DNA from: Thermoplasmata archaeon
GTDB lineage: Archaea; Thermoplasmatota; Thermoplasmata; RBG-16-68-12
NCBI GenBank assembly: GCA_035637195.1
Contig: DASPXQ010000061.1
Location: 1 to 35,724, forward strand
DNA length: 35,724 bases
Direction: 5' to 3'
Under the pieces are notes generated by a model. It did no database searches. It had not been told where the DNA came from and saw only the letters and a program-made list of their open reading frames with translations. This document shows positions 4,076 through 35,724 of this stretch, in pieces. The position numbers were made by a program, and so were the translations under genes. Each line of letters starts with the position of its first letter. The first letter of the stretch is position 1.

Positions 4076-4352
4076 GGAGAGACACCGAGTGAGGCCGGAA
4101 GAGATGAAGGAGATGTTCGAGGTCGCGTCGGAGAAGATCCCGGCGCTGTTGAACAGCCTCACGGACTCCATCTACGGAAAGGACGCATCGGCGAAATTCG
4201 GGGCCGCGGTCGCGGACTTCTACAGCACCCTGAAGAAGAGCGGCATGACGGAGGAGCAGGCGTTCAAGCTCACGGAGCAGTACATGTCGTCGCTGAACCT
4301 GGGCGGGATCATCGCGAAGGCCGTCGGGAAGCGCCACCAGGACGAAGAGTGA
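4068..4352 (+). CDS. Small alpha-helical protein, unknown function
   Basis: The ATG at 4068 (MAEERH) overlaps the upstream stop (4073-4075) by 8 nt. About 94 aa, no TM segment. The start could instead be 4038. Confidence 0.5.
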   Translation: MAEERHRVRPEEMKEMFEVASEKIPALLNSLTDSIYGKDASAKFGAAVADFYSTLKKSGMTEEQAFKLTEQYMSSLNLGGIIAKAVGKRHQDEE

Positions 4353-8884: not shown

Positions 8885-8908
8885 TTCTCGGGCCGTCGAT
8901 CGCCCCGC

Positions 8909-11011
8909 TCACGGCGCTTCGCGGAACACCGACCCAAGGCTTCCGTCGACCCAGAGCGAACGCGGGCGGCCGTCTCCGTTCGATACGACATCGAACCGCC
9001 AAATCGGGAGAAGCACGAGTTCCGGCTCGACCGCCGACGGCTTCACGCCGAGCGTCGTGCGGACAATCTCCTGCGCCCGCGACGGGCCGACCTGCGCGAT
9101 CCGGATCGAGTCGTCGATTCGGGCCGAGGGGATGCGCTCCAGGAGGGATTTCGGCGCGAGCGGCTCGAGCTTCACCGCGTCCTTGCGGGGGATCTCCTCG
9201 AACGTGATGCGGCCGTACACCCCGTGGCCCAGCTCCCCCGTCGCCGCGTTCACATAGAACTGACGGACCACGCGGCCCCCTTTGCGGCCGAGCGGGACCT
9301 CCGCCTCCACCCGCCACAGCGGGAGGTAGTAGAACGCCTTGCGGGCCACCTGCTCCCGCGGGCTGAGCAACCGCCGGCGGGCGTGGTCCCGGACGACCTT
9401 CGTCGCGCGGACGAGCGGGAACCGCAGCGGGAACATCGCGACTTGCGCGGGCGCGCCCCGGCGGGGATCGAACCCGACCGTCGGGTCCCAGTACACCTCG
9501 CGTCCGTCGAGGCGCTCCGCCGTGAGGAGCCGATGCTCGACGAGCTTCCGCAGGAGGATCGGGAGGAACTTCTCGTCGGCCACGACACGCGTCGCGATCT
9601 CCGATTGCCCGTACAGCCCCGGCGCGTCCTCGAAGACCTTCAGCACGCGGAGGCCGATTCCCTCCTCCACGGCGGTGGGTACCGTCGCCTTCGCGTCCCG
9701 GGCGGCCGCCGCCGCCATCCGCCGCCGACGCGCGATCCGGTCCTCGGCCATCGGCTCGGCAGGGGAAAGAGTCCCGGTCGCTTGAATCTCCCGGAACTTC
9801 TCCTCCGGCACGACCTCGTGGCGGGTCGCGAGGCCGCGCACCCGCAGGCGTTGCGCGGACGTCAGGTGGTCCGGCGACAGGAGGATGAACTCGCCCGCGC
9901 GCAACGATGGGATCGCCGCGAGGATCCCTTCCGGCGGCCCGTTGACGGACGCGATCACGTGCCGCACCCGGTCGAGGTCCTGCCTCGCCATGAGCCGACC
10001 GAGCGCCCAGGTGCTCGCCTGCCCGAGCGCCTTGTAGTCCAGGTCCGTGACGTTCTGCGTCGCGACGATCACGCCGACGCCGTACTTGCGCGCCTGCCGG
10101 AACAGGAGGGAGAGGAACTTCTTCGCCGGCGGGTTCCGCGGATGCGGCGGACAGAGGCCCGCGACCTCGTCGATGTAGACGACGAGCCGCAAATCACCGA
10201 GGGGCTTGGCGGTCATCCAGGCGACGACGTCTTTGCACAACGTTGCGACCACCAGCTCCCGCTCCCGTGGGTTGCGCAGGCCGCCGGTGTACACGACGCT
10301 CACGGGCACGCGGTCTCCCGGCGCGGGACGGACCATCGACTCGACGTCGAGCGCCGGTCCGGCGGTGAACAGGAGGCCTTTCGCCCCGACGGTCATCGAC
10401 TGCGCACGGCGGACGAGGGAGGCGCGCTCTTGCTTCGTCTGAAGGGCCGTGGCGTCCGGCGGCGCTTCGGCTTCGAGGATCTTCACCAGACCCGCGATGT
10501 CCCGCGGCCACCGGCCCCCTTTGAGGCAGGATTGAAGCGTAAGAAAGAGCACATCCTTCGCGCGGCCGCCCGTCTCGCCGGAGGGATCGTAGCCCATCGC
10601 GGCGGCGAGGCTCTCCGCGAGCGCGTCGAGCGCGACGACGAGGTCCTCGGGCGCCGCGGCGACGGGAGGCGACTTGAGCGGATTCAGCCCGACCGGGGTG
10701 CCGCGCGTCGAGCCCGGCGTGAGGATCGACACGGCGGCCCGGGACCAGTACTCCTCGACGACCTCCGGGTCCGCCGGGTGCTCCTTCGCCGACGCGTCCG
10801 TGTGCGCGAGCGCGAGGGACGCGAGATCTCCTTGCGGGTCGACCGCGATCACGGGGACGCCCGCGCGGACCGCTTCTTCGATGAACGCCTTCGCGAGGAC
10901 CGTCTTGCCGGCGCCGGTCGCACCCAAGATGACGACATGGCGCAGGAGCGCGTCCTCCGGCAGCTCGACGGGCGTCTTCGCCTCCGGATCAGTTCCAAGC
11001 TGGAGCGACAT
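8909..11011 (-). CDS. HerA/FtsK-superfamily P-loop ATPase (DUF87/DUF853-like core) with about 250-aa C-terminal extension
   Basis: 700 aa. Walker A GATGAGKT followed by GVPVIAVDPQGDL, Walker B LVVYIDEV, then VIVATQNVTDLD. The extension (aa ~445-700) looks like a wHTH plus two repeats of a helix-beta-beta module. Confidence 0.75.
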   Translation of the reverse strand: MSLQLGTDPEAKTPVELPEDALLRHVVILGATGAGKTVLAKAFIEEAVRAGVPVIAVDPQGDLASLALAHTDASAKEHPADPEVVEEYWSRAAVSILTPGSTRGTPVGLNPLKSPPVAAAPEDLVVALDALAESLAAAMGYDPSGETGGRAKDVLFLTLQSCLKGGRWPRDIAGLVKILEAEAPPDATALQTKQERASLVRRAQSMTVGAKGLLFTAGPALDVESMVRPAPGDRVPVSVVYTGGLRNPRERELVVATLCKDVVAWMTAKPLGDLRLVVYIDEVAGLCPPHPRNPPAKKFLSLLFRQARKYGVGVIVATQNVTDLDYKALGQASTWALGRLMARQDLDRVRHVIASVNGPPEGILAAIPSLRAGEFILLSPDHLTSAQRLRVRGLATRHEVVPEEKFREIQATGTLSPAEPMAEDRIARRRRMAAAAARDAKATVPTAVEEGIGLRVLKVFEDAPGLYGQSEIATRVVADEKFLPILLRKLVEHRLLTAERLDGREVYWDPTVGFDPRRGAPAQVAMFPLRFPLVRATKVVRDHARRRLLSPREQVARKAFYYLPLWRVEAEVPLGRKGGRVVRQFYVNAATGELGHGVYGRITFEEIPRKDAVKLEPLAPKSLLERIPSARIDDSIRIAQVGPSRAQEIVRTTLGVKPSAVEPELVLLPIWRFDVVSNGDGRPRSLWVDGSLGSVFREAP

Positions 11012-11086
11012 GGCATTCCTTCGGTGGGCGGTTGAGCGTTAACTGACGGGCGACATATACCTTTGGCGGGGCTTCCCAAAGCGGCC

Positions 11087-11365
11087 TCAGGTCAGCGGAG
11101 AAAAGAGACAACGACATCTTCCGCTTTCGACGCCGGACGGGGACTTCGCCACGGTCCCGGCGACGCTCTCCGAGACTTTCGACTGCCCGAGGTCCTCGCC
11201 GTACAACGTGGCGTCCGTCAGGGGCGCGAACGTCCCGGCGTCGAAGTCAGCCCGGACCTTCGAGTCGAGGAAGATCGACCTCGGCACGACGATCGTGTTC
11301 ACGCCGACGACGAACGGCCCGTACGCCGACGTAAGGTCGAACCGAAAGTCCGACGAACCACCCAT
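11087..11365 (-). pseudogene. Orphan fragment homologous to an internal segment of the 12070-13950 gene
   Basis: The 92-aa ORF contains FDLTSAYGPFVVGVNTIVVPRSIFLDSKVRADF...LYGEDLGQSKVSESV. The large protein has FDVTSAYGPFVVGVNTIVVPRSIFLDSKLKADL...LYGEDLSQASVSESV. Flanking residues are unrelated. Confidence 0.6.
11258..11329. repeat. 72-nt perfect direct repeat, copy 1 (core of the duplicated gene segment)
   Basis: cttcgagtcgaggaagatcgacctcggcacgacgatcgtgttcacgccgacgacgaacggcccgtacgccga is identical to 13351-13422. Confidence 0.9.
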
Positions 11366-11420
11366 GCCGTCGGCGTCCGTGTCCGCAGCCTCGGAGTCAG
11401 GCCAATGCTCCCCGTCTCCG

Positions 11421-12065
11421 CTAGCTGTAGACAGCGTCGAATCGGTCCTTGGGAATCATGATGTCTTCGCCCCTTGCAGCCCGCGCTCGGTTCTCCGGCG
11501 TCTCGATTTCGACCCGCATGATTGCGAGTATCTTCGCGTATCGTCGGACCTCCTTCTCACCGACGTATAGCAAGAGGTCTAGGGCATTCAGTTGGAACGT
11601 AAGGCCATCCCTTAGTGTGACGTTGTAGGCGGGCACGAACCCCTTCCTCTCAGCCGCGGGGGTCATGGAGACTATGTCCTTGTAGGGAAGGAACCAGTCT
11701 TCCTTCGAGAGGCACTGTTTGGGCTTGAAAGGTGGGTAGAAACCGTCCGCAGAGATTGCCACTCGATTGACGGCTAGGATCGTCCTCCGGGTGTGGAACC
11801 AAGCCCCGAGCGCCATGACCGCGACAACCGGGGCCACACTAGCGTAGTATCTGAGCGGGTCGGCCGTGACGATTTCGCCACCTTTGAGGAACGGAGCCAG
11901 AGCGATCGGAGCGATCACAAGGAAGAAGACGACTCCAAACCACAGGACGCCCCACTGAATCTTTCGTTCCAGGCGCCTGCGGCGCACTCGTTTGGGGGCG
12001 ATTTCAATTAGGGCTATTCCCGACCGCGGGGCCAGAGAGTCAGGGCTTGTTGCGAGGGATGACAC
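11421..12065 (-). CDS. Two-TM membrane protein with a possible bacterial-PH-like C-terminal domain
   Basis: 214 aa. Basic stretch KRVRRRRLERK, two hydrophobic helices, then a beta-rich ~110-aa domain. The start lies 4 nt after the stop of the upstream large gene. The fold assignment is a guess. Confidence 0.5.
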   Translation of the reverse strand: MSSLATSPDSLAPRSGIALIEIAPKRVRRRRLERKIQWGVLWFGVVFFLVIAPIALAPFLKGGEIVTADPLRYYASVAPVVAVMALGAWFHTRRTILAVNRVAISADGFYPPFKPKQCLSKEDWFLPYKDIVSMTPAAERKGFVPAYNVTLRDGLTFQLNALDLLLYVGEKEVRRYAKILAIMRVEIETPENRARAARGEDIMIPKDRFDAVYS

Positions 12066-12069
12066 CGAC

Positions 12070-13950
12070 TCAGCCTTCTGACAGCGCGTTGTTCAACTTT
12101 CCGATATCGGAAACCAAGTCTGTTGCTGTGGTAGCGATGCCGATGGCATTCATCGCGACGGTCACCGGATAGAGGAACGGGTACCATCCCCGGACCAGAT
12201 TTGCGCCCCGCCCTGAAATCTTGATCATGTCCTTCAGCCCAGACAAGGCGAGGTAGAGGGCTATGACATCCGCCACGACCAGTAGTGTCAGACCGAAAAC
12301 AGTTTCCCCCAAGGTTGCTCTAATCACTGCCGAGACTCCCAGAATCATCAGCCCGAGGATCGAATCCTTGAGCGCCGTTTCGACGCCTTGGATCGGCTTC
12401 AATGGCCTCTGCGCCAGCTCGTATGCGAACAGGAACTGCGCCACGGTGAACGTCGCCCCGGTGACCTCGTTAAACCTGGGCGGTAGCAGGTTCTCGATGA
12501 CTGCAGACCCGAGCCACGCGTTGATCGCCGCCACGACGAGCATCCCGATAATCAGGCCTGCGATGGCTCCGATGACGATCCCCGCGACGTTCGCGAGACC
12601 GAGAGTCATCGCGTTCGTAGTCTTCTCGGCGACGCTGAAGGCGACGATGATCGCAAAGATTGCCAGGGCGAAGGCAGAGAAGAATGTGAGTTGGATCAAG
12701 CCGCGGACGAAGTCGTCCGCAGAAAGGCTCCGGATCGACATGACCAGGGCCGCGACCTCGTTCGCCCAAGCGAGGTAGGCATCCACGATGGGTTTCGTCA
12801 GCGGGACCACGATTGAGTTCCAGATGGCCATGATCGCCTGGACGAGGCCGTCGACGAACTGGTTGAACACCTCCCCCGCCTTCTGCGCGACCGCCACGAC
12901 CTTCTCCCAGATCGCCCCGAGCGCCCTCATCCCCCAGTCGACGATCGCCTCCGCCAGGTTGACGAGGAACGTGCCGAGGGCGACGAGGCCGTCGTAGAAC
13001 ATCTGGCCGAGCTGCACGAGGACGTTCACGAAGCCCGGCATGCCGGCCGGCGCCGCGCCCGTCGCGCCGTTCGTCACCTTCGCCCACGGCAGGATCCGCA
13101 CGACGTCGTACGGCAGGTTGACCAAGAGGACGTACGACGTGACGTCGACGTAGCTGTAGACCTGGACGTTCGTCGCGTTCTGTAGCAACCGGCTCAGGAC
13201 GTTGTACGCGTTCGCGCCGGAGAGGGACAGCGCAATGACGTTCATCACGCTCTCCGAGACGCTCGCCTGGCTCAGGTCCTCGCCGTACAGCGGCGCGTCC
13301 GCGAGGGGCCATTGCCGCGACGCATCCCCCGAGACGAGGTCCGCCTTCAGCTTCGAGTCGAGGAAGATCGACCTCGGCACGACGATCGTGTTCACGCCGA
13401 CGACGAACGGCCCGTACGCCGAGGTGACGTCGAACGTGAACACGTAGTACCGATCCTGTCCAACGAGCCGGCTCTGGCCATTCGCCAGGGTGATCGTCGT
13501 GTTCCCGTCCGTGACGAACAGCGTCTTCGCCTTCGGCAGGGCGACCGTCCAGACGTCGAACGTCATCCAGGAGTACCCGTTGTACAGCGTGCACGACGAG
13601 ACGCCCGAATTGAGCGTGCACGAGGGCGAGCCGGAGTTGAGCGTGTAGGTTATTGATCCGTCAACGAGGACGTCGTCCCATAGCAATCCGTCGACGGACC
13701 ATCCGGTCCCCCGCACGGAGGCCGACGCGACATCGTCCGGGACGTCCGCGTAGTACGTCAGGTCGAAGACCGCCGTGGAGGCGATGTTGGACCCGCACGG
13801 GAAGGAGAAGTAGACGTCCTCCGTTGCCCACCGGTGCTCCGTGACCCACGTGTACGCGTCGTTCACGCGGATGACCCCCGCGAGTTCCGGCGTGTCGCGG
13901 TCAGAACATTCCCGGGCACGAATTCGCCATGGTCGGAACGTCACCCGCAT
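12070..13950 (-). CDS. Large membrane protein: beta-rich N-terminal region, Ala/Val-rich helical middle, about 6 C-terminal TM helices; unknown function
   Basis: The track ORF (to 14019) runs through the tRNA, so I trimmed it to the first ATG after the tRNA (13950, MRVTF). No signal peptide is visible. The true start is uncertain. Confidence 0.55.
   Translation of the reverse strand: MRVTFRPWRIRARECSDRDTPELAGVIRVNDAYTWVTEHRWATEDVYFSFPCGSNIASTAVFDLTYYADVPDDVASASVRGTGWSVDGLLWDDVLVDGSITYTLNSGSPSCTLNSGVSSCTLYNGYSWMTFDVWTVALPKAKTLFVTDGNTTITLANGQSRLVGQDRYYVFTFDVTSAYGPFVVGVNTIVVPRSIFLDSKLKADLVSGDASRQWPLADAPLYGEDLSQASVSESVMNVIALSLSGANAYNVLSRLLQNATNVQVYSYVDVTSYVLLVNLPYDVVRILPWAKVTNGATGAAPAGMPGFVNVLVQLGQMFYDGLVALGTFLVNLAEAIVDWGMRALGAIWEKVVAVAQKAGEVFNQFVDGLVQAIMAIWNSIVVPLTKPIVDAYLAWANEVAALVMSIRSLSADDFVRGLIQLTFFSAFALAIFAIIVAFSVAEKTTNAMTLGLANVAGIVIGAIAGLIIGMLVVAAINAWLGSAVIENLLPPRFNEVTGATFTVAQFLFAYELAQRPLKPIQGVETALKDSILGLMILGVSAVIRATLGETVFGLTLLVVADVIALYLALSGLKDMIKISGRGANLVRGWYPFLYPVTVAMNAIGIATTATDLVSDIGKLNNALSEG
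13351..13422. repeat. 72-nt perfect direct repeat, copy 2
   Basis: Identical to 11258-11329. Weaker similarity extends to about 13250-13443 versus 11165-11350, with an indel. Confidence 0.9.
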
Positions 13951-13961
13951 CCAGAGGCCGA

Positions 13962-14035
13962 CGCCCCTGCTGGGATTCGAACCCAGGTCTGAAGCTCCGC
14001 AGGCTTCTAGCCTGTCCAAACTAGCCGACAGGGGC
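13962..14035 (-). tRNA. tRNA-Arg (anticodon GCG)
   Basis: Folded by hand. Acceptor GCCCCTG/CAGGGGC. D stem GGCT/GGCT (two G-U pairs) with a GG-containing loop. Anticodon stem GAAGC/GCTTC with loop CTGCGGA. T arm CTGGG-TTCGAAT-CCCAG. Discriminator G. No encoded CCA. Confidence 0.88.
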
Positions 14036-14060
14036 GCAGCGGCGCCAAACGGCCCGGGCC

Positions 14061-14066
14061 TATTTG
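14061..14066 (-). promoter_or_regulatory. TATA-like box for tRNA-Arg
   Basis: The minus strand reads CAAATA, centred about 28 nt upstream of the tRNA 5' end. Confidence 0.45.
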
Positions 14067-14087
14067 ATGATGCTGATTGCGCTCCGC

Positions 14088-14717
14088 CTAGGCCTTGAGC
14101 ACTTCAATCGTCCGGAGGAAGATCTCCTCGATTAGCCCGCTCGCATAGACCTCGCGCAGCAGGCCGCGGTCCCGGTAGTACTTAATCAGCGGCGCCGTCT
14201 GCTTCTCGTGCGTCTCAATCCGCTTGCGCACGACGTCCTCCTTGTCGTCCGCACGGATGATGAGGGTCGTGCCGCACTTGTCGCAGATGCCGGGCTTCTT
14301 CGGCGGGTTCATCAGGATGTGGTAGACCGTGTCGTCCTTCGGGCACACGCGCCGGCCCGTGTTCCGCTTGATCAGGTCCTCCGGCTCGAGGAAGAGGCTC
14401 ACGACCGCGTCGAGCTTCGTGAGTTTGGAGAGCGCCTCCGCCTGCGCGATGTTCCGCGGGAAGCCGTCGAGGATGAAGCCCTTCTTGGCGTCCGGCTCCT
14501 TGAGCCGACGTTCCGTCATCGCGATCACGAGGTCGTCCGGCACGAGCCGCCCGGAGTCCATGTACGCCTTCGCCTTCTCCCCGAGAGGCGTATTGTCGAC
14601 GACGTTCCGCCGCAGGATGTCTCCGGTCGAGATCCGCGGCACACCGAGGTACGCGGAGAGCTTCTCGGCCTGGGTGCCCTTACCCGCGCCCGGGGGGCCG
14701 AGGAGGACGAGACGCAT
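14088..14717 (-). CDS. adk: Adenylate kinase (long-lid, bacterial type)
   Basis: MRLVLLGPPGAGKGTQ P-loop. Lid with CPKD...CDKC (Cys-Asp-Cys-Cys metal-site pattern). Confidence 0.92.
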   Translation of the reverse strand: MRLVLLGPPGAGKGTQAEKLSAYLGVPRISTGDILRRNVVDNTPLGEKAKAYMDSGRLVPDDLVIAMTERRLKEPDAKKGFILDGFPRNIAQAEALSKLTKLDAVVSLFLEPEDLIKRNTGRRVCPKDDTVYHILMNPPKKPGICDKCGTTLIIRADDKEDVVRKRIETHEKQTAPLIKYYRDRGLLREVYASGLIEEIFLRTIEVLKA

Positions 14718-28256: not shown

Positions 28257-29540
28257 GTGGAGCGCGGGGCGTTGGCGCTGGACTCCGGGGACATCGCGTG
28301 GGTCATCGCCGCCACCGCCCTCGTCATGATCATGACGCCCGCGCTGGGCTTCTTCTACGGCGGACTCGTCCGGCGGAAGAACCTCGTCTCGACGATCGCA
28401 CAGTGCTTCGCCATCTTCGCCCTCGTCAGCCTGGTGTGGGCCCTCTGGGGCTACACGCTCGCCCTGGGGCCGTCCTACAACGGCTTCATCGGTGACCTAT
28501 CGAATTTCGGGCTGAACAATGTGGGAGCCGCCCCCAACCCCGGCTACTCGTCGACGATTCCGGAACTCCTGTACTTCGCCTTTCAGCTGAAGTTCGCCGC
28601 GATCACGCCCGCCCTCATCATCGGCGCGTTCGCGGAGCGGATCCGGTTCAAGGCCCTCCTGATCTACATCGTCCTCTGGACGACGTTCATCTACGTGCCG
28701 ATCGCGCACTGGAATTGGGGCATCGGCGGATTCCTGAAGTCCCTCGGCGTGATCGACTTCGCGGGCGGCCTCGTCGTCCACACGGCCGCCGGCGTGTCCG
28801 CGGTCGCGGCTGCGCTCGTGATCGGGCGGCGCGAGGGGGTCGACCGCCTCGACAGCCGGCCGAACAACATCCCGTACGTGATCCTCGGCGCCTCCGTCTT
28901 GTGGTTCGGATGGTTCGGCTTCAACGCCGGGAGCGCGCTCGCGGCGGATGCGCTGGCCGTCAACGCACTTGTCGTGACGAACCTGGCGGCCGCGGGCGCG
29001 GCGGTGAGCTGGATGCTCACGGACTGGGTGCGGAAAGGGAAGCCGTCCGCCGTCGGGATGGCGGTCGGCGCCGTCTGCGGGCTCGTCGCGATCACCCCGG
29101 CCTCGGGGTACGTCGGCCCGATGCCGTCGATCATCATCGGGTTGGTCGCGGGGGTCCTCTGCAACTACGTCGGCAGCTGGAGGGCGCGGACGACCCTGGA
29201 CGATTCCCTCGATGTCTTCGCGTGCCATGGGGCCGGTGGGATCTGGGGGACGATGGCCACCGGTCTCTTCGCATCGTCTCTAATCAATCCGACCGGCCCG
29301 AATGGCCTGTTCTTCGGGAACCCTGGCCAGCTCGGCATCCAGGCACTGGCCTGCGTCCTCGTGGCGGCCTTCGCGTTCGCCGGGTCGTACGTCCTCTTGC
29401 GCATCATCAATATCTTCACGCCAGTGCGAGTCAGCCCGGCCGAGGAACACGCGGGCCTCGACACCTCGGAGTTCGGCGAGGAAGCCTACGCGACCGAGCG
29501 CGACGAACCGAACCCGACCCAATCAGGATTGGCCTTCTGA
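28257..29540 (+). CDS. amt: Ammonium transporter (Amt family)
   Basis: MTPALGFFYGGLVRRKN, DFAGGLVVHTAAG and DVFACHGAGGIWG (twin-His). The track start at 28110 would overlap the divergent protease start, so I used the in-frame GTG at 28257. The start is uncertain. Confidence 0.9.
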   Translation: MERGALALDSGDIAWVIAATALVMIMTPALGFFYGGLVRRKNLVSTIAQCFAIFALVSLVWALWGYTLALGPSYNGFIGDLSNFGLNNVGAAPNPGYSSTIPELLYFAFQLKFAAITPALIIGAFAERIRFKALLIYIVLWTTFIYVPIAHWNWGIGGFLKSLGVIDFAGGLVVHTAAGVSAVAAALVIGRREGVDRLDSRPNNIPYVILGASVLWFGWFGFNAGSALAADALAVNALVVTNLAAAGAAVSWMLTDWVRKGKPSAVGMAVGAVCGLVAITPASGYVGPMPSIIIGLVAGVLCNYVGSWRARTTLDDSLDVFACHGAGGIWGTMATGLFASSLINPTGPNGLFFGNPGQLGIQALACVLVAAFAFAGSYVLLRIINIFTPVRVSPAEEHAGLDTSEFGEEAYATERDEPNPTQSGLAF

Positions 29541-29571
29541 CGCGTCCTTGACGGCCGCGTTGCGTGTAACG

Positions 29572-29663
29572 AGTACAACTTCGGCTTGGCCTGCGGCTCG
29601 TTCCAGTACGGCCTCGTCGTGACGTACCTGAGCTTCGCCTCGAAGCGGTCGTTCAGGAACTCC
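29572..29663 (-). pseudogene. Orphan copy of the last 30 codons of the Lhr-type helicase gene (stop codon lost)
   Basis: Gap-free alignment to 34209-34300 with 83/92 identical nt. Encodes EFLNDRFEAKLRYVTTRPYWNEPQAKPKLY. The position of the helicase TAG reads TCG here. Confidence 0.8.
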
Positions 29664-30389
29664 CTTTCCGGAGGAACTCCGGCGCGAAGCCCACCGACAT
29701 GGGCGTCGGCGAATCCAAACGGCTCGCATGGCCGTCGCAGCTGATCAATACGGACAGGCGCCGTCGTTTCCGGTACCAACTGTGAATCTCCAGACCGTCG
29801 ACGTATACAACGAAGCACTTCTCCACCGGAGAGCCGATGTTGATGTACTTCGCTTGGACGCTCTGGCTCTGCCCGAACTCGACGCCAGATGAACCGTCAG
29901 CGATACGCCGATGGCCGAGACGCTGAACTCAACGTCAACCGTTACGGTGACCGTGAGCGTATACGTGTATGTGTTATTGTGATACGCAGCGACGTGCACA
30001 AACGGATACGCCCCGTTAGCCACCGCTCTTGACTCTCCCTGATCCCTCGTCAGCTGTTCAGTTGTGGACTCCGAGGAATAGAGGGCGGACTTGTAGGACT
30101 GGACGTACACCATCTGCTTCCCGGCCGAGTCGACGATCTTATACGCCGTGCCCGTCGGCCAGTAGTCGCGCCATGGAGCCGTCCCCGATGAACTGTAGCC
30201 CGTTTCGATCGTGATGTCAGTCCCAATCGAGCCCGCGAAATTGACCCCCAGAAATCCCGCTTGGAAGCCCGCGTCGACTTTCGCGTCGACGCTCACTTTG
30301 GAGCCGGGCGCAAAGGCGCCGACACTGTCTGCCCCCGGGCCAAGACCCCCGAAACAGATGCGGGCTTTCCTGCCGGTCCGTTGTCGCAA
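29653..30389 (-). pseudogene. Beta-rich protein gene with probable frameshift near 29885-29925; amphipathic Ser/Thr hairpin reminiscent of aerolysin/ETX-MTX2 pore formers
   Basis: The track ORF is 29745-30389 (TTG start). Its last ~45 aa are Arg/Ser-rich junk with GC3 about 57%. An alternative frame reads DGSSGVEFGQSQSVQAKYINIGSPVEKCFVVYVDGLEIHSWY with GC3 about 75% and stops at 29653. Confidence 0.45.
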
Positions 30390-30404
30390 GGCGACGTCTC
30401 GACG

Positions 30405-30415
30405 CCCCCCCCCCC
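30405..30415. repeat. C11 (G11 on the minus strand) homopolymer
   Basis: An uninterrupted run of 11 C, 16 nt upstream of the TTG start at 30389. Confidence 0.9.
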
Positions 30416-31030
30416 GGCCTCGACTTCGTCGAAACGGATATCGGTCGAAGGAAATGCTTACGTCTCAGTTCACCGGGTCGGCGTCCTGCTCGACGAGGAT
30501 CTCGGACCGGTCCCTCCACCCGGACGACGGAGAAGCAACCCGGCTCCTTCATCGGTGAAGCATAGGCGCGCCGATTGGTGCGGGATTGCGCCAAGAACGT
30601 TCCTGAACCGGCGCCGTCACACATGCAAGTCAGAGTCTGGCAAGGCGTGAAATAGGGCTTGGCGCGGAGGTTTCCCCGATTTCATTCTCTCCCTGAACGA
30701 TCGCCCAACTCGGGGTATCCGTCGCTGGCGCGGGAGCGGACCCCTAGTCCTCGCCGTCTTCGAGCTCCGGCGAGGAAGACCAGCAGGAGGATGAGCCCGA
30801 GGCCATGCATCGTATTCGCGACAACACTCATTGTCCACGCGGTATTTGCAAGTTGCTCGTTTCTCCCTCTCGCCGCATCCGCCAACGACACCAAGGACTA
30901 GGCGCTCAACGAGAGTCCGGCGCCAATCAGTGCCGCGGGGATGGCATACCTTGCACGGCAGGGAGATCTGAAAGGTTCGGGTCCTCTCCCCGCCTCGACC
31001 GATGCGACCTGCACCTACGGTCCCCTGCCG

Positions 31031-32356
31031 TTAGCGTTGCGCGATTGTCATGGAGACCATGTCCGAATTCATCCAGGTCCTATCCAAGGCAAAAGTAGCC
31101 CCCGAAGCCACGGTGATGTGGGTTACGAAGAGCTTGGCCATCATGTGGTATGTGGTGCCCAGTGGGCAGAGGTACACGGGGTTGTGGACGACGAACCGAC
31201 CTCGGTCCGACCACCCCTCGACATGATCGGGTTGGAAGAACCACCAGCCCCACGTATCGACTTTGTGCACCACGGTCTCTCCCGCCGCGACCACGGAGAA
31301 CGGATAGTCGCGAATCAGTTCGTGGCGATAGTGGATGTCGAGCACGATGTGGGTGAACGCGTACGGTGCCAAGGGGTCGTGCCCCACTCCGTAGTACAGG
31401 ATGAACCCGTCATCCACAACTGTGGTGAACGACTGAAAGTTCGCGCACTCGGGGAGGGCGAATTGGGGGCTGCTCATCAATCCAGCGGTCTGGACATCCG
31501 CCCGCCCGAAGGGCGAACCCGCGATGGTAAGCAGGTCCGAAACTGTGTTGCCCGTCCCCGGGTTGGCCGAAATGCCGTACACATAGACGTTGGCCATCCC
31601 GATTGTGCGTTGATAAACAACTCCCGCGGCTCCATCAGGATACGGGGCGGTGTAGTAGCGCCCCCAGTCCTGGGCGGGGTCCGGATCCGGGGGAGGGGTG
31701 TCAGGTGCCGGGGGCGTGAGTGGGGAAGGCCAGGACTGTAGGGAACTCATTCCGAGTAATGACAGGGTCATGTAATCGACGTAGCCTCCGCCGGTCTTCG
31801 TGACGTTCGAGAGCAGAAGTAGTGTTGAAAGGTTGTCGTAGTAGCTCCGGAACGAGTAGTTCGTCACTGAATAGTCGACCTGGATCGCCTCGTACGTCGA
31901 ACCCCGGAACTCCCAGTTCGGGAGGATCGCGGTGACGGTGGAGGACACACCACCTAAGGCGACCGTCGCCCCGACGGCCACATTCGTGTTGACCCAGAGC
32001 CAAGAGTAGTTTCCGGGGAACGTCAAGGATTCCCTACTTACCGAATCGTAGCGCCGCTGGACCCAATCGGACCCGTCTCCCGTCGCAAACTTCTCCTCTA
32101 TGATAAAATGCGTCGCGTTGTTCACGAGTACGGTCATGTTGTACCAGCCGGACGAGACGGTCGTACCGTTCGAAGTCACGTTGGTCCCGCGCCATTCGTA
32201 GACTATCGAATTGCCCGGCTGCATCCACTCTCCAGACACACTAGCCGTACGAGTCGAGCCCACTAGTGATAACACCCCAAGTGAGAAGACTATCGCCCAC
32301 GCGAGGGCCTTTAGAGATACAAACCGTTGCCCACGGGAGCGCCGGTCCCGGAGCAT
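31031..32356 (-). CDS. Secreted/anchored protein with sequon-rich N-domain, Pro-rich linker and C-terminal globular domain; unknown function
   Basis: Start taken at the ATG at 32356 (MLRDRRSRGQRFVSLKALAWAIVFSLGVLSLV). Many N-x-S/T sites. Linker PSPLTPPAPDTPPPDPDP. No family recognised. Confidence 0.55.
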   Translation of the reverse strand: MLRDRRSRGQRFVSLKALAWAIVFSLGVLSLVGSTRTASVSGEWMQPGNSIVYEWRGTNVTSNGTTVSSGWYNMTVLVNNATHFIIEEKFATGDGSDWVQRRYDSVSRESLTFPGNYSWLWVNTNVAVGATVALGGVSSTVTAILPNWEFRGSTYEAIQVDYSVTNYSFRSYYDNLSTLLLLSNVTKTGGGYVDYMTLSLLGMSSLQSWPSPLTPPAPDTPPPDPDPAQDWGRYYTAPYPDGAAGVVYQRTIGMANVYVYGISANPGTGNTVSDLLTIAGSPFGRADVQTAGLMSSPQFALPECANFQSFTTVVDDGFILYYGVGHDPLAPYAFTHIVLDIHYRHELIRDYPFSVVAAGETVVHKVDTWGWWFFQPDHVEGWSDRGRFVVHNPVYLCPLGTTYHMMAKLFVTHITVASGATFALDRTWMNSDMVSMTIAQR

Positions 32357-32574
32357 CGCCCACCTCCACTCTCGCTCGCCCACGCCTTGCGCCGTCTGGA
32401 TTCTCATGGTTCCACACTCGCCTCACCATCCGATGACGGCCATATGGGCTTGAGCGAAATTGGACCAGGGGAGCGGTGAAATTTCGACAGGAATCCGCGA
32501 TGACTCCCGACGAGCCGTTGCCGAGCGATGCAGGCGAAGTGCGGACTGGGCCGCCGCTGGTAGAACCTGCGGTT

Positions 32575-32635
32575 TGGTAACGAGGTGGTAACAGAATGGT
32601 GGCGAGTTGAACAGAGGGCGGTTCGACGTGGTAAC
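32575..32635 (+). promoter_or_regulatory. Three direct TGGTAAC heptamers in the divergent intergenic region (candidate operator)
   Basis: Copies at 32575-32581, 32586-32592 and 32629-32635, with spacings of 11 and 43 nt. CTAAATA at 32641-32647 lies just upstream of the regulator gene. Confidence 0.35.
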
Positions 32636-32661
32636 CCCGCCTAAATACACAGAGGCCGCTC

Positions 32662-33057
32662 ATGGCGCCCGTGACCCGGACAGCCGTGCACCAACCCGAG
32701 AGTGGCTATCCAGGCACGCCGTACGTCCCGAACGAGGATCGCTGTCTCGAGCTCCTGCGGTTTTTGATCCTCGGCACGCGTGGCGGCCAGAACCGAGCGC
32801 GGATTCTCGCGCTGCTCTTGGACCGACCCCGCCACGCAAACGAACTTGCGCGTGAACTCGACGTGAACTACGGGACCGTCACCCGGCACCTCCGGTGTCT
32901 GATGGAGGCCGGACTCGTCTTACCGCTCACGCCGGGGCGGTACGCGCAGGCATATGCGGTCGCCCCCGTCCTCCGGAAACACGTTGCCGTATTCGAAGAA
33001 CTCCAGTCGGCTCTGCAGGTGTCGCGATTTGGCGCGCTGCCTAAGACCACTCCATGA
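32662..33057 (+). CDS. ArsR/SmtB-like wHTH transcriptional regulator
   Basis: 131 aa. RARILALLLDRPRHANELARELDVNYGTVTRHLRCLMEAGLV. The start could be a few codons downstream. Confidence 0.7.
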   Translation: MAPVTRTAVHQPESGYPGTPYVPNEDRCLELLRFLILGTRGGQNRARILALLLDRPRHANELARELDVNYGTVTRHLRCLMEAGLVLPLTPGRYAQAYAVAPVLRKHVAVFEELQSALQVSRFGALPKTTP

Positions 33058-33931
33058 CGTACTCGCAATGATCGTCTCCCCGGCGAACGCAGCGTGTCTT
33101 CGTTACGGTTCCTGAGAGCTTGCGGCTGCGCAAGATGCCCTCGTACGCGCCGTGGAAACCGGCGCAGAACGCGGGGGTCGGGAGCCACTCATAGTGAAGG
33201 AAGCCGGCGCGGTGCTTCCCGGTCCTGACCTCGAGGCGCCCGTAGTTCCACTCCTTGCTATACACGACGGGGGCTCGCTCGACCAGCACCTCCATCGGGA
33301 CAAGCCTGGAAATCTCGGCTCGGACGGTCGAGATCGCGGGAACGACCTTCGCGCTGACGGACCGGATGAACTGAAAGCTGCCATCGCCGAACCGGGCCTC
33401 TAGGAGTTCGAGGAGTTCGTTGTAGGCGTCCACGGAGAGCCAATCGTCTGCCCCGAGGTCGTCGGGGCTGACACCCCACCCGCGGAGTACGTCTCGGACG
33501 GCGGATGCTCCGAATTCGCGGGACACATGCCGGACGACCAGGAGGGCGAATTGTGCCCGGATCTTGGGAACGAAACCGAGGAGCGTAGCGCTCTTGGCCA
33601 CCGGGTTGTATCGGCGGCTCGCATCCCGGAAGTAGGTGTCGAGGGAGAGTCCCGGCTGGGTAATTGCGTAGAGACGCCCCCGCGCCCGAGCTTCGGGCGT
33701 GAGGCACTCGACGAGGTCCCGGCCGCTCAACTCTCGGAGAGCCCGGCTCACATGCCCGATGCGCAGGGACGTGTCCTCCGCGATCTGACTCGGCAAACGA
33801 GGCCTCGCTGCGAGCGAGCGTAGGACCTTCTCGCGATACCGGCTCGACGCCACGAAACTGAAATCCCGCCACAGCCGGTTCCGAGAGCCCGCCTCACCGC
33901 CGACTAGGGCGCGACCTCGCCTCCGTTTCAT
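33041..33931 (-). CDS. wHTH plus V4R/H-NOX-like ligand-binding domain regulator
   Basis: N-terminal REKVLRSLAARPRLPSQIAEDTSLRIGHVSRALRELSGRDLVE. C-terminal PAFCAGFHGAYEGILRS...VTKTRCVRRGDDHCEYVMEW matches the V4R Cys pattern. The start is ambiguous (33931, 34018 or 34093). The 3' end overlaps the ArsR gene by 17 nt. Confidence 0.65.
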   Translation of the reverse strand: MKRRRGRALVGGEAGSRNRLWRDFSFVASSRYREKVLRSLAARPRLPSQIAEDTSLRIGHVSRALRELSGRDLVECLTPEARARGRLYAITQPGLSLDTYFRDASRRYNPVAKSATLLGFVPKIRAQFALLVVRHVSREFGASAVRDVLRGWGVSPDDLGADDWLSVDAYNELLELLEARFGDGSFQFIRSVSAKVVPAISTVRAEISRLVPMEVLVERAPVVYSKEWNYGRLEVRTGKHRAGFLHYEWLPTPAFCAGFHGAYEGILRSRKLSGTVTKTRCVRRGDDHCEYVMEWS

Positions 33932-34206
33932 CCTCGGCAAATCCACCGGTCGCGTCTTGAGGTTTGCGCGGGTCGGGCGTCTGGATGTCCCGGGACCGCC
34001 TCGGTATTCATCCCCCATGACATGCAAGCCGCACGAGCGCCCGCGCTGAGGTCCGTCGCCCGAGAACCGAAGTTCCCATCCCGACCTGCGCATCGCGGCC
34101 CGGGCTACAAATAGCCGCTGTCAAGGCTCGATCCCACACGGGCCGCGCTCCGCGAGCGAGACTCATCCTTCCTACTCAACGCCGCACGCCGTCATTCGCT
34201 CCTTTC

Positions 34207-35724
34207 CTAGTACAACTTCGGCTTCGCCTGCGGCTCGTTCCAATAGGGCCGCGTCGTGACGTACTTCAGCTTTGCCTCGAACAGGTCGTTCAGGAACTCC
34301 GTCTCTGTGTCCTGCATCCTCGCGAGAATCTTGCTGGCGGTCGTCGGGCCGACGCCATAGACAGAGTTCGCGTACACGGCCCGCTTCCCGTAGACGGCCA
34401 CGAGGTCCGCGATCTGCTTCGACCGGGTGAGGAGCTTCCGTTCCTCGTCCGTGAGGTCGAGCTTCCTCGTCCGCTTCGCATAGGCGTCTCGCACCGTCCA
34501 CGCGGCCCATCCGAGGACCGTCAGAAGTCGCGACTTGCATTTCGCACATTCCGGATGGTCGGGCATCGCGCCGATCCGGACCTCCTCGTGGAAGTGCCCG
34601 CACTCGAAACAAAGGAGGTGAACCGGCTCCGAGGACAGGTGGAGGCGCATCCGGTCCAGGATCTCCCCCCGCTCCGCTTCAGGCGAGAAGAGCTCCGGCG
34701 CCTCGACGTACCGCCGGAGGATCGGATACGCGAGGGTCGTCGGCGTCTCCTCGGATCGGCGGACGACGACCTCGATTTGACCAGCACGAATCTTCTGCAC
34801 GATCTCGCGCACGCGCGCGAAGTCCGCGTGGAGCAGGAGCGCCTCTCGCACCGCCTCGTCGTAAATCGGCGTGTTCGCGAAGCGGACCTCGAACGACCGC
34901 AGGTCGCCCTCGCCGACCGTGAGCCCGCGGCGGATCGCGCCGAATCGCTCCGCAATCGCCTTCATGTAATACCCGAGGGGCAGGTGGTCCTCGAGCAGCG
35001 CCTTCAAGCCACCCTCCAGGGTCTCGTCGTCGATCCTCAACAGGTCGTTCACGAGGCCCTCGACGTCGAGTTCGCGGGTGTCCGCCACGAGCTCGTACAG
35101 GATCCGGTACGGGTCCGTCCACCAGAACCGGACGAGGTGCTTGCGGGCGAGCAGTTCCTCGATCAGGTCGCCCAGGGTGACGTTGACGACCTCGCCGAAC
35201 GACGAATGGACGATCAGGAAGCGGTCGAACGCCTCGACGAGAATCCGGTCGTCCGTCGGCACGGGCGCGCCGGACTTGCGATGGTTCGCGTGCTCCTCGA
35301 CGAGCCGCTTGGCGCCCGTCTTGTTGATCGGCCATGCCGTCTCGAAGTGCTCGACCGTCTTCGAGACGCCGTATCGTTCCAGTCGCGTGTCGATCTCCTT
35401 CCTGATGCGCCCGACGCGCTGCGCGAGGCCGAACGGCACCGGGAGCATCTCGCCGTCCCAGCCGGGGATCATCGCGTTCGGATCCGACACCGGGGTGACG
35501 TAGACCATGCCGTCCTTCCCAATCCGCTCGATCTTCCAGGGCCGCCCGCGGACGATGAAGTGCAGGCCCTCGCGGGCCTTGATCATCATGAACTCCTCGC
35601 CGAGGATGCCCACCTGCCGCTGCGACGTCAGGTCGAGGACCGGGTAGCGGCGCTCGTCGCGGATCGTCGAGAGGTTCTCGAAGTAGTAGCGGCGGCCTTT
35701 CGGGGTCACGCGGATCCTCTCGCC
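34207..35724 (-). CDS. lhr: Lhr-type (large helicase-related) ATP-dependent helicase, C-terminal half; 5' end lies outside the window
   Basis: The reading frame is open to the window edge. DEAD-associated-type region, Cys4 ribbon CFECG...CAKCK, terminal HhH-like VYGVGPTTASKILARM. Confidence 0.75.
   Translation of the reverse strand, partial: GERIRVTPKGRRYYFENLSTIRDERRYPVLDLTSQRQVGILGEEFMMIKAREGLHFIVRGRPWKIERIGKDGMVYVTPVSDPNAMIPGWDGEMLPVPFGLAQRVGRIRKEIDTRLERYGVSKTVEHFETAWPINKTGAKRLVEEHANHRKSGAPVPTDDRILVEAFDRFLIVHSSFGEVVNVTLGDLIEELLARKHLVRFWWTDPYRILYELVADTRELDVEGLVNDLLRIDDETLEGGLKALLEDHLPLGYYMKAIAERFGAIRRGLTVGEGDLRSFEVRFANTPIYDEAVREALLLHADFARVREIVQKIRAGQIEVVVRRSEETPTTLAYPILRRYVEAPELFSPEAERGEILDRMRLHLSSEPVHLLCFECGHFHEEVRIGAMPDHPECAKCKSRLLTVLGWAAWTVRDAYAKRTRKLDLTDEERKLLTRSKQIADLVAVYGKRAVYANSVYGVGPTTASKILARMQDTETEFLNDLFEAKLKYVTTRPYWNEPQAKPKLY
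34209..34300. repeat. Direct repeat partner of 29572-29663 (functional 3' end of the helicase gene)
   Basis: See the alignment. It is in frame with the helicase ORF and terminates with TAG at 34207-34209. Confidence 0.85.

Follow-up and report, generated by a model that had tools for sequence, protein, structure and literature searches.

What places a block of foreign-looking genes between two genes that are direct neighbours in related genomes? In a soil archaeon, a 4.6-kb insert of this kind separates lhr, the gene for an Lhr-type helicase, from the ammonium transporter gene amt, which is the resident lhr neighbour in alleles that carry no insert (empty-site alleles). The locus lies in a 35,724-nt stretch of DNA, hereafter the window (Table 1). 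An initial annotation of the window described a discrete integrating element whose mobility genes had been lost or act in trans, with a non-classical mechanism as its fallback. We compared the window with about 130 related soil Thermoplasmata loci and counted orphan copies of the lhr end over about 110 lhr loci.

Table 1. Features of the lhr–amt interval in the window
Feature	Coordinates	Strand	Basis
amt, ammonium transporter, convergent with lhr	28272–29540	+	Pfam Ammonium_transp, E = 1.5e-118
Native Ser codon TCG, ex-stop and 26-nt spacer to the amt stop	29541–29571	-	Colinear with empty-site alleles and the L061 orphan
Orphan copy, displaced native lhr 3' end, decaying (L to R, K to R)	29572–29668	-	
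Distal cargo end and putative illegitimate junction with lhr codon -30	29664–29744	-	Read from sequence; lhr similarity ends here
Cargo ORF 4, 214 codons, beta-rich, start position uncertain	29745–30389	-	GC3 0.69
Stretch of ~640 nt with no convincing gene; holds the C11 run at 30405–30415	30390–31030	.	
Cargo gene 3, 441-aa protein, family unassigned	31031–32356	-	Translation
Cargo gene 2, ArsR-type HTH regulator, 131 aa	32662–33057	+	Pfam HTH_5, E = 7e-13
Cargo gene 1, 296-aa winged-helix regulator, HVO_A0261_N-like	33041–33931	-	Weak Pfam match
Functional repeat copy, last ~30 lhr codons	34209–34305	-	Ends TAC|TAG
lhr 3' part, 505 codons, Lhr-type helicase; runs past the window end	34207–35724	-	Pfam DEAD_assoc, WH_Lhr

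Two lhr ends around a foreign-looking block

The insert is bracketed by two copies of the end of lhr. One is the in-frame end of the gene itself, as first annotated, with the TAG stop at 34207–34209 and Pfam domains that identify an Lhr-type helicase. The encoded protein is 82–94% identical in amino acid sequence to Lhr of soil Thermoplasmata metagenome-assembled genomes, and the L131 contig carries a complete 942-aa Lhr with DEAD, Helicase_C, WHD_Lhr and DEAD_assoc domains. The other copy is an orphan beside amt. Positions 29572–29663 align with 34209–34300 without gaps and are identical at 83 of 92 nt (window self-BLAST, E = 1.8e-29); a repeat search lengthened the pair to 97 nt at 89% identity (29572–29668 against 34209–34305). 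In the lhr frame the orphan reads EFLNDRFEAKLRYVTTRPYWNEPQAKPKLY and the functional copy EFLNDLFEAKLKYVTTRPYWNEPQAKPKLY. The two peptides differ at 2 of 30 residues (L/R and K/R), and six of the nine substitutions are synonymous. These values reproduce the initial annotation, including its observation that the copies differ mainly at synonymous sites. The repeat forms no significant fold (z = -0.7 and +0.2 against shuffled sequence).

Several features identify the orphan as the native end of lhr. It runs ...TAC TCG TTA and then into the native spacer, with the Ser codon TCG at 29570–29572 overlapping the repeat by 1 nt, and with an ex-stop at 29567–29569 (TTA in the window versus TGA in relatives) 26 nt from the amt stop. 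Empty-site alleles and the L061 orphan share the pattern ...TA[CT] TCG TGA cgtgc..ggccgt.aag... The orphan and the sequence that follows it are colinear with the empty-site alleles, and the orphan is the native lhr end. It comes closest, with 4 differences in 92, to the native ends beside amt in L061, L053 and L104. The TCG had been noted earlier as standing at the stop position; the triplet is indeed present, but it encodes Ser, is shared with empty-site relatives and immediately precedes the true stop codon. The functional copy, by comparison, acquires its TAG at the cargo junction, with the AG coming from the cargo side.

Empty-site alleles occur in L111, L058, L057 and L052, where lhr ends ...TAT TCG TGA, 26–30 nt from the amt stop. 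In L111 lhr continues directly into window positions 29670–27035, as it does in the other three, and both copies in the window can be aligned with the one lhr end of the empty site. These alleles thus correspond to precise loss of the insert plus one repeat, and bear out the prediction that removing the segment would leave lhr and amt convergent about 30 nt apart. Such a site is equally expected under homologous recombination and under site-specific integration. Among the relatives compared, no empty allele exceeded ~91% nucleotide identity to the window, and searches for a circular or linear intermediate of the insert found none.

The cargo is compositionally foreign. Its tetranucleotide distance is 0.29, against 0.10–0.20 in the rest of the window, and its GC3 is 0.69–0.79, against 0.88–0.91 for lhr and amt. 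Composition therefore favours the cargo, not the amt side, as the presumptive newcomer, a point that structure alone does not decide. The exact product of cargo gene 1 (P0001) is present on six contigs, and homologues with 56–61% identity lie elsewhere in other genomes, partnered with an ArsR gene and not adjoining lhr. This regulator had been assigned a V4R domain; Pfam detects none and returns only the weak winged-helix match. The cargo gene 3 protein has an N-terminal hydrophobic anchor, numerous N-x-S/T sequons and a Pro-rich linker, and is on these grounds probably a secreted or surface glycoprotein. It matched nothing in Pfam and PDB-sequence searches, and is also called as 441 aa in L132, L133, L140 and L141. 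Cargo ORF 4 likewise had no match in Pfam and PDB searches. The supposed frameshift in this beta-rich gene gives way to a homopolymer polymorphism at 30405–30415 between near-identical strains (G10 in L131 and L133, G11 in the window and L132), apparently in an untranslated leader. At the distal cargo end lie a palindrome, CCGGAGGAACTCCGG (29668–29682), and a 9-mer, AGGAACTCC, that occurs at 29655–29663 and again at 29672–29680. No terminal inverted repeats were detected in the insert, and an Rfam search of it gave no match.

Could the structure be a local tandem duplication that has since diverged, or an assembly chimera built on the 92-nt repeat? Tandem duplication can produce direct repeats of a gene end, and repeats are places where a metagenome assembler can fuse strains. 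Yet the stop codon is exactly where similarity ends, the sequence past the orphan bears no relation to the cargo, and the cargo departs in composition from its flanks. Moreover, at least six independently assembled contigs (L131, L132, L133, L134, L140 and L141), obtained from different samples with different pipelines, show the same lhr–cargo–orphan structure. We consider this origin very improbable.

The near-identical strains also show that the two copies exchange sequence. The functional copy in L131, L140 and L141 shows three clustered differences, AGGCCGTAC (as in the orphan) versus CGGCCCTAT, between strains that are 99.3–99.9% identical, a cluster that is a gene-conversion tract between copies. 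The orphan of L010 has been homogenised, over its right part, with the functional copy that L010 itself carries. Together, the tract and the L010 homogenisation show that lhr-end copies interact by homologous recombination.

Recurrence downstream of lhr

The arrangement is not confined to the window. Orphan lhr ends are present in ~35 of the ~110 lhr loci, and the ~130 loci contain at least 13 independent junctions (junction families). The right boundary is always the last Tyr codon, where coding conservation between alleles stops. The left boundaries, measured from the lhr end, lie at ~75, 78, 84, 92, ~118–125, ~145–160, ~175–180, ~190 and at least 217–223 nt, so the duplicated stretch ranges from ~75 to at least 223 nt, with at least nine different left ends. 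Blocks are stacked into arrays in L016, L088/L122, L112 and L131, and within arrays the most decayed orphan copies lie farthest from lhr. Cargo over the loci includes a toxin-antitoxin pair, surface proteins, an ABC transporter, Ro60 and amt itself. The interval downstream of lhr is thus a hypervariable hotspot in soil Thermoplasmata. Four or five junctions bunch at a distance of 145–180 nt from the stop; this hint of a favoured breakpoint counts against the reading that we prefer below.

Complete small gene cassettes, arrayed one after another and all ending in the same sequence, raise the prospect of a dedicated cassette system, integron-like but lacking a recognisable integrase, in which the lhr end is a portable recombination site. 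The toxin-antitoxin cassette, whose junction is the same although its place in the array differs, and the strong preference for the lhr end over the amt end would both suit such a system. However, the divergence of the toxin-antitoxin cassette tracks that of lhr, as under vertical descent; neither side of the array has a conserved gene next to it; the repeat does not resemble attC; and cassette ends are undefined, with a variable left boundary and, in L086, a far end inside amt. A system of this sort is doubtful. Just as doubtful is its strongest form, in which the last ~75–230 nt of lhr would be a dedicated portable attachment sequence and cassettes would be captured, stacked and reshuffled by an unrecognised recombinase elsewhere or by an lhr-linked activity. 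If true, the system would be an integron-like platform lacking both an integron-type integrase and attC. The toxin-antitoxin cassette itself appears to be old and mostly vertically inherited, which implies that truly independent events are fewer than loci.

Source of the inserts and the search for a recombinase

The incoming block is another lineage's version of the locus in L086, L105/L012 and L088. Positions 1–1609 of L086 are colinear with 612–2223 of L067 through lhr, the up193 gene and then 104 nt of the amt 3' end, where the cargo end abuts the lhr orphan with a 4-nt microhomology, TGAA, at the junction; L012 shares this TGAA junction inside amt. The L086 cargo is thus one unbroken stretch of a different allele, and its far end is arbitrary. 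Several other cargos are found elsewhere as plain lhr-downstream neighbours. An FG-GAP/fn3 gene that is cargo elsewhere lies directly 3' of lhr in L068, an ABC transporter that is cargo elsewhere does so in L017, and the giant FG-GAP gene of L016_c2 begins ~200 nt past lhr in L095, with the first ~190 nt unmatched. No donor genome with lhr followed by the window's own cargo was found among the relatives compared.

The search for mobility genes covered the cassettes (at least 13 families), more than 100 loci including as much as 10 kb of their flanks, the downstream tails and the region upstream of lhr. Pfam found no integrase, transposase, Cas1 or Rep in the cassettes, the 35.7-kb window or the scanned flanks; the earlier statement that the cargo holds no integrase, transposase or replication gene thus stands. 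Scanning 2617 ORFs with a crude tyrosine-recombinase motif yielded four candidates, none of which Pfam confirmed. Nor was any viral or plasmid contig with an lhr end found.

These scans bear on a possible origin from site-specific elements targeting the lhr 3' end, of which the inserts would be relics or satellites, with the recombinase deleted or supplied in trans. Much of the locus would fit: the boundary falls precisely at the coding end, the stop is supplied by incoming DNA, the most decayed copies in tandem arrays lie farthest from lhr, the cargo is foreign in composition, a toxin-antitoxin module is among the cassettes, lhr orphans far outnumber amt orphans, and the last ~75 nt, common to all copies, could hold a core site. 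In Thaumarchaeota, integrated mobile elements occupy the 3'-distal part of protein-coding genes and likewise supply the stop (PMC6563490). But thaumarchaeal att sites mostly do not exceed 25 bp (one is 13 bp) and crenarchaeal ones span 29–69 bp (PMC6563490), against repeats of 75 to at least 223 nt with at least nine left ends here, and the repeat has neither an inverted-repeat core nor a significant fold. The empty recombinase scans, the want of a viral or plasmid carrier and the L086 cargo, colinear with another allele up to a point inside amt, also speak against such elements. We regard this origin as unlikely, though less so than a cassette system; a recombinase encoded outside the scanned regions could still act in trans.

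The variable breakpoints, the recombinase scans and the L086 cargo ending in amt argue that the insert is not a self-mobile element. We favour, as the probable account, one homologous crossover in lhr combined with one illegitimate join (homology-facilitated illegitimate or Campbell-type recombination). DNA from another lineage would have brought an lhr end together with that lineage's downstream genes, paired with the resident lhr and undergone a single homologous crossover within the last ~90 nt of lhr. At its other end, the incoming DNA would have been joined illegitimately to the resident lhr at codon -30. The outcome would be no different if a circularised fragment had entered by a single Campbell-type crossover, or if two chromosome copies had undergone an unequal exchange. 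Either way, lhr would retain a working end, now TAC-TAG, and the resident end, with its Ser-stop and amt spacer, would be shifted 4.6 kb downstream and then decay. Repeated rounds would stack blocks into arrays, and leftover copies would become substrates for gene conversion, deletion and allele replacement. That host homologous recombination acted here, together with an illegitimate join, we infer from the end products only. The searches that found no donor for the window's cargo, no closer empty allele and no intermediate count against this account. The bias in orphans, with at least 13 junctions at the lhr end against one at the amt 3' end, fits one-sided anchoring at the edge of the variable region; it also fits an lhr-specific process.

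Crossover and illegitimate join preserve one part of the initial annotation, namely that incoming DNA with its own lhr 3' end displaced the resident one, as the colinearity of the orphan with the native spacer and amt suggests. The discrete element gives way in the face of at least 13 variable junctions, scans that found no recombinase and a cargo that resembles a chunk of an allele. On the same evidence, the fallback of a non-classical mechanism is the better reading.

Comparison with known systems

The lhr arrays resemble several known systems in part. As in integrons, promoter-poor small cassettes form arrays with a recurring separator, and new units are apparently added beside a fixed site. 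Unlike integrons, they have no IntI beside the array and no attI/attC hairpin (the repeat folds no better than shuffled sequence), and the separator is a coding gene end of variable length. The inserts do not look like casposons, transposons or IS elements: there is no Cas1 or transposase in the scanned regions, no terminal inverted repeat was detected, and the duplication is variable, from 75 to at least 223 nt.

Cis-mobilisable elements (CIMEs) accrete beside ICEs, for example at the fda 3' end in Streptococcus thermophilus. With these and with thaumarchaeal elements the lhr inserts share insertion at the very end of a conserved gene, restoration of that gene with a stop from incoming DNA, flanking direct repeats, tandem arrays and units without their own integrase. 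Those systems, however, have short att cores at fixed positions and an integrase in at least some units, whereas at lhr only the right boundary of the repeat is constant and Pfam scans of units and flanks found a recombinase in no member at the site.

Single-crossover 'pop-in' integration is routine in euryarchaeal genetics. Its Campbell-type product is a direct duplication around the inserted DNA, which is unstable to pop-out and whose copies undergo gene conversion. The lhr insert is likewise flanked by a direct duplication of the homologous segment. Unlike laboratory pop-in, it would be a natural event involving a circle formed from a random genomic fragment, and no circular intermediate was observed.

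Sequential or C-terminal displacement arrays are found at bacterial polymorphic-toxin loci: the T6SS effector-immunity arrays of Vibrio cholerae, Rhs C-terminal tips and orphan cdiA-CT/cdiI modules. Homology-facilitated illegitimate recombination has been put forward as their origin (PMC5361080 and references therein), a proposal for T6SS, Rhs and CDI orphan arrays that follows the same logic as ours for lhr. In these arrays, as at lhr, incoming DNA adds new downstream content to a conserved upstream anchor, the old 3' part is moved downstream and survives there as an orphan, arrays grow by repeated events that leave older units farther away, and no recombinase appears to take part, one junction being illegitimate. 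At lhr the conserved anchor is on one side only, and the other junction falls at arbitrary positions with little or no homology (at varying positions in lhr, and in amt in L086/L012). There are differences: the lhr arrays belong to an archaeon; they are anchored in a housekeeping repair helicase that keeps its own C-terminus unchanged; the cargo is arbitrary (regulators, surface proteins, transporters, toxin-antitoxin, amt) and does not consist of toxin-immunity pairs; and the recipient's own segment is duplicated, not replaced. By this analogy, the lhr arrays may be regarded as an archaeal counterpart of bacterial "sequential displacement" arrays.

Functional and displaced ends of lhr

The window carries two copies of the 3' end of the Lhr-type repair-helicase gene lhr, a pairing first noticed in the initial annotation and borne out by pairwise alignment and by BLAST of the window against itself (E = 1.8e-29). 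The copies are identical at 83/92 nt without gaps, six of the nine substitutions are synonymous, and the peptides in the lhr frame differ only by L/R and K/R; a repeat search lengthens the stretch to 97 nt, at 89% identity. The 34.2-kb copy, hereafter the functional copy, is the in-frame end of a gene that runs off the window (Pfam DEAD_assoc, WH_Lhr) and is convergent with the ammonium-transporter gene amt. It ends TAC|TAG, with the first cargo bases completing the stop. The 29.6-kb copy is an orphan, and searching the window with an nhmmer profile built from 94 lhr ends turned up no other. The cargo between the copies has the tail ...CCGGAAAGG. The 9-mer pair and palindrome at the cargo/orphan junction might form a terminator-like hairpin behind the last cargo ORF, or else mark a templated insertion made during joining.

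Genes 82–94% identical to the lhr C-terminus occur in soil Thermoplasmata MAGs. Scans with the last 60 lhr residues added genome loci and 80 metagenome loci, giving a comparison set of about 130 related loci in all. Four of these (L111, L058, L057, L052) are empty sites, in which lhr and amt are convergent without an insert and lhr passes straight into the sequence that follows the window orphan. Each of the two window copies aligns with their one lhr end, and similarity runs on through amt at ~90% nucleotide identity. The empty-site alleles end ...AAATTGTAT TCG TGA cgtgc..ggccgt.aag.., 26–30 nt from the amt stop, and the window orphan reads ...AAGTTGTAC TCG TTA cacgc..ggccgtcaagg. Because the orphan is colinear with these alleles, its TCG is a Ser codon of the native gene, whose TGA has mutated to TTA. 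The TCG previously placed at the stop position is thus present, but the stop position is the next codon. Judged by this colinearity, orphan plus spacer is the resident lhr end, as the proposal of a displaced 3' end had it.

A fresh example of such displacement, to judge from its sequence, is L061, where the two copies differ by one mismatch over ~150 nt; AGgggcgcc... (cargo) follows the functional copy and CGTGAcgtgcg... (native) follows the orphan. The window orphan differs at 4/92 positions from native ends of the L061 type, and the functional copy at 5/92 from the closest match to it. A distance tree of these copies had too few sites and was dropped, so colinearity with empty sites settled which copy is native. 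An empty allele was also sought in the population of the window itself, where exact-protein lookups gave only insert-bearing contigs.

Repeat copies also exchange sequence. Three strains 99.3–99.9% identical to the window (L131, L140, L141) carry the whole insert, and their functional copy reads AGGCCGTAC, like the orphan, where the window has CGGCCCTAT; by this comparison it holds a three-site conversion tract. The L010 orphan has been homogenised with its own functional copy over its right 110 nt, while its left part is diverged. Gene conversion between ~90-nt repeats is informative on recombination in this lineage. L131 further departs from the window within the amt 5' end, a switch that is a recombination breakpoint between near-clonal strains, and has an extra partial lhr orphan past amt.

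Coordinates of features in the window and in related loci (L-numbers)
Locus	Feature	Position (strand)	Remark
Window	HerA/TrwB-like ATPase	8909-11038	near tRNA-Arg and low-GC stretch
Window	189-nt repeat	11163-11342; 13247-13435	82% identity, ~2 kb apart; first 85 nt 97% identical
Window	lowest-GC stretch	11500-12500	GC 0.57; adjoins tRNA-Arg region
Window	membrane-protein ORF	12070-14103 (minus)	677 codons, stop-to-stop; source of 189-nt piece
Window	tRNA-Arg(GCG)	13960-14036 (minus)	inside membrane-protein ORF
Window	amt	28272-29540 (+)	
Window	lhr orphan	29572-29663	
Window	cargo/orphan junction	29655-29682	9-mer AGGAACTCC twice, starts 17 nt apart; second inside perfect palindrome CCGGAGGAACTCCGG
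Window	insert	29664-34208	period 4637 nt
Window	C11 run	30405-30415	
Window	29-codon ORF	30760-30835 (minus)	small hydrophobic peptide (MSVVANTMHGLGLILLLVFLAGARRRRGLG); in 640-nt "non-coding" stretch
Window	functional lhr end	34209-34300	
L016	PIN + RHH/UPF0175 pair	760-1626	also L125, L091, L112, L010, L056, L104
L021	116-165-nt repeat, three copies	4185-4302; 6995-7163; 8296-8460	85-88% identical; upstream of lhr
L083	tandem 166-nt duplication	2842-3173	99.4% identity
L086	block colinear with L067 612-2223	1-1609	
L086	lhr orphan	1606-1691	
L100	TROVE/Ro60-like protein	7532-9115	Pfam TROVE E = 2.7e-37; in 5.9-kb cassette
L131	divergence from window 28208 and below	10683-11469	99.7% identical over 7.5 kb, then unrelated sequence resembling L088/L122/L059
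L131	extra partial orphan	10703-10763	past amt
L141	77-nt deletion (window 33997-34073)	6095/6096	between lhr and regulator gene, strain otherwise 99.9% identical; next 317 nt, with functional repeat copy, just 97%

The insert and its cargo

Composition sets the insert apart, as a windowed GC and k-mer scan confirmed: its tetranucleotide distance (0.29) is the window's highest, against 0.10–0.20 elsewhere, its GC (0.62) is the lowest in that scan, and cargo GC3 is 0.69–0.79 vs 0.88–0.91 in lhr and amt. Composition favours the cargo side, rather than the amt side, as the last arrival; structure alone is indecisive.

From their sequences, the cargo genes look like regulators plus a secreted glycoprotein: a 296-aa winged-helix regulator, an ArsR regulator, a probable 441-aa secreted glycoprotein and a 214-codon ORF of no recognised family. 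No V4R domain was detected in the 296-aa protein, which had been annotated as wHTH-V4R, and a PDB sequence search with three cargo proteins gave nothing below E = 0.8. The supposed frameshifted gene is better described as a strain length difference in probable leader sequence. Among strains >99% identical, the homopolymer is G10 in L131 and L133 and G11 in the window and L132, which switches the ORF call between 282 and 214 codons, and the part upstream translates as Arg/Pro-rich, non-coding in look. What was taken for a broken gene may therefore be a leader tract, a promoter tract or an artefact of sequencing.

None of the other compared loci carries the window's cargo. Regulator homologues (56–61% identity) sit elsewhere in other genomes, not beside lhr, with an ArsR partner or with a giant surface protein and MoaC as neighbours. 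No donor allele was found; the sole 81% regulator homologue has no contig on record.

Recurrent orphans downstream of lhr

Orphan lhr ends occur in roughly one third of lhr loci. Aligning each orphan with its own functional copy mapped the junctions: the right boundary is always the last Tyr codon, and the left boundary differs among junction families, with at least 13 distinct junctions. As a gauge of any special DNA-level constraint on the lhr end, third-position diversity is 0.23–0.27 in the last 120 nt and 0.33–0.44 just upstream, but it is at least as low between -1140 and -900 nt.

Left boundaries of orphan lhr ends
Length (nt)	Loci
~75	L016 second orphan
78	L088/L122 first orphan
84	L100; L086/L012
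92	window
~118-125	L022, L004/L079
~145-160	amt unit, L061 type, L069, L112 second orphan
~175-180	toxin-antitoxin unit
~190	L103
>=217-223	L071/L119, L105

Orphans stack into arrays. L016 runs lhr, toxin-antitoxin, orphan, giant FG-GAP gene, orphan, BNR, amt; L088/L122 runs lhr, ABC transporter, orphan, amt, orphan; L112 has two orphans ahead of amt. The amt gene is itself flanked on both sides by lhr copies in L051, L054/56, L059, L088/122 and L006/97.

Several cargos are ordinary lhr-downstream genes of other genomes. By Pfam, bracketed cargo includes a toxin-antitoxin pair (PIN + RHH/UPF0175), FG-GAP/fn3 and FG-GAP/Big_9 surface proteins, DUF3466, TPR, an ABC2 permease with ABC ATPase, TROVE/Ro60, pentapeptide repeats, AAA ATPase, GNAT, peptidase A4, HINT/fn3, BNR, amt, and wHTH and ArsR regulators. 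In L086, the block colinear with L067 (lhr, up193 gene, 104 nt of the amt 3' end) is followed by an lhr orphan, a different gene and a full amt, with only TGAA in common at the amt|lhr junction. On this sequence the stack is two alternative versions of the same interval, and since the cargo stops within amt, the far end of inserted DNA is arbitrary and can cut a gene. L012 has the same junction with a different gene on the left, so later allele replacement between conserved pieces also happens.

Six loci share a single junction for the toxin-antitoxin unit. The unit has mostly diverged as far as lhr (77.8 vs 77.9%, 88.2 vs 88.4%), so it is old and mainly vertical, with losses, and horizontal mobility of the cassette was rejected, a few exceptions aside. 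The pair is kept beside lhr across lineages only 78% identical, its promoter region is palindromic and AT-rich (...ATATCATATTACGTATACA...), and in L056 and L104 a deletion took its orphan and most of amt.

Proposed displacement without a recombinase

Pfam searches found no integrase, transposase, Cas1 or Rep domains in bracketed cargo. None turned up in other downstream genes either, nor in the remainder of the 35.7-kb window, nor in the region upstream of lhr, which holds a giant Big_7 protein and a rhodanese; the absence reported for the insert extends to these surroundings. Four candidates came out of a crude motif scan for tyrosine recombinases in 2617 ORFs, 0/4 with Pfam support. Viral contigs held no attP-like copy of the lhr end, and the insert has no terminal inverted repeats. 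An attC-like site was rejected, as the repeat folds no better than shuffled sequence. The sole Rfam match in the whole window is tRNA-Arg, with nothing in the insert. The tRNA-Arg/HerA region is a candidate for an old integration site, and no integrase was noticed there. The repeated membrane-protein fragment, which has decayed out of frame and lies immediately upstream of the gene for the HerA-like ATPase, makes a second orphan gene piece in the window and is not an lhr copy.

The footprint, as read from end products only, would follow from a single homologous crossover in lhr combined with one illegitimate join. A constant right boundary at the end of coding conservation with variable lhr breakpoints fits this scheme, as do arbitrary cargo far ends, ordinary genes, lack of a recombinase, and gene conversion. 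Three variants are conceivable: homology-facilitated illegitimate recombination, in which the join lies upstream of where the anchor ends; Campbell-type crossover with a circularised fragment; and unequal exchange between copies of the chromosome. All yield an identical product and are indistinguishable here. The main rival, a site-specific integrase that may act in trans, would suit the excess of lhr over amt orphans, which is large, and has precedent in archaeal elements that enter protein genes at the 3' end and bring a new stop codon with them (PMC6563490). The long, variable repeats speak against it, as does the L086 structure, and both equally leave the integrating element first proposed for the window unsupported.

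By its sequence organisation, the locus is probably a recombinase-free displacement array in Archaea, anchored on lhr, whose mechanism we infer from end products. The lhr-downstream hotspot is striking and its footprint usable: an orphan gene end is a readable mark for finding such events in metagenomes, and a caution that gene-end duplication around an island is not always an integrated element. If this reading is true, uncultivated soil archaea gain and stack genes beside a conserved gene without mobile-element machinery, and short one-sided homology and one illegitimate join suffice. Archaea and ordinary cargo would then join the range of a route that has so far been suggested chiefly at toxin loci of bacteria. 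Orphan arrays at T6SS, Rhs and CDI loci in bacteria have been explained along the same lines (PMC5361080) and are likewise displacement arrays formed by recombination without a recombinase. Unlike those toxin-locus arrays, the one described here is archaeal, is anchored on a housekeeping helicase and carries arbitrary cargo.
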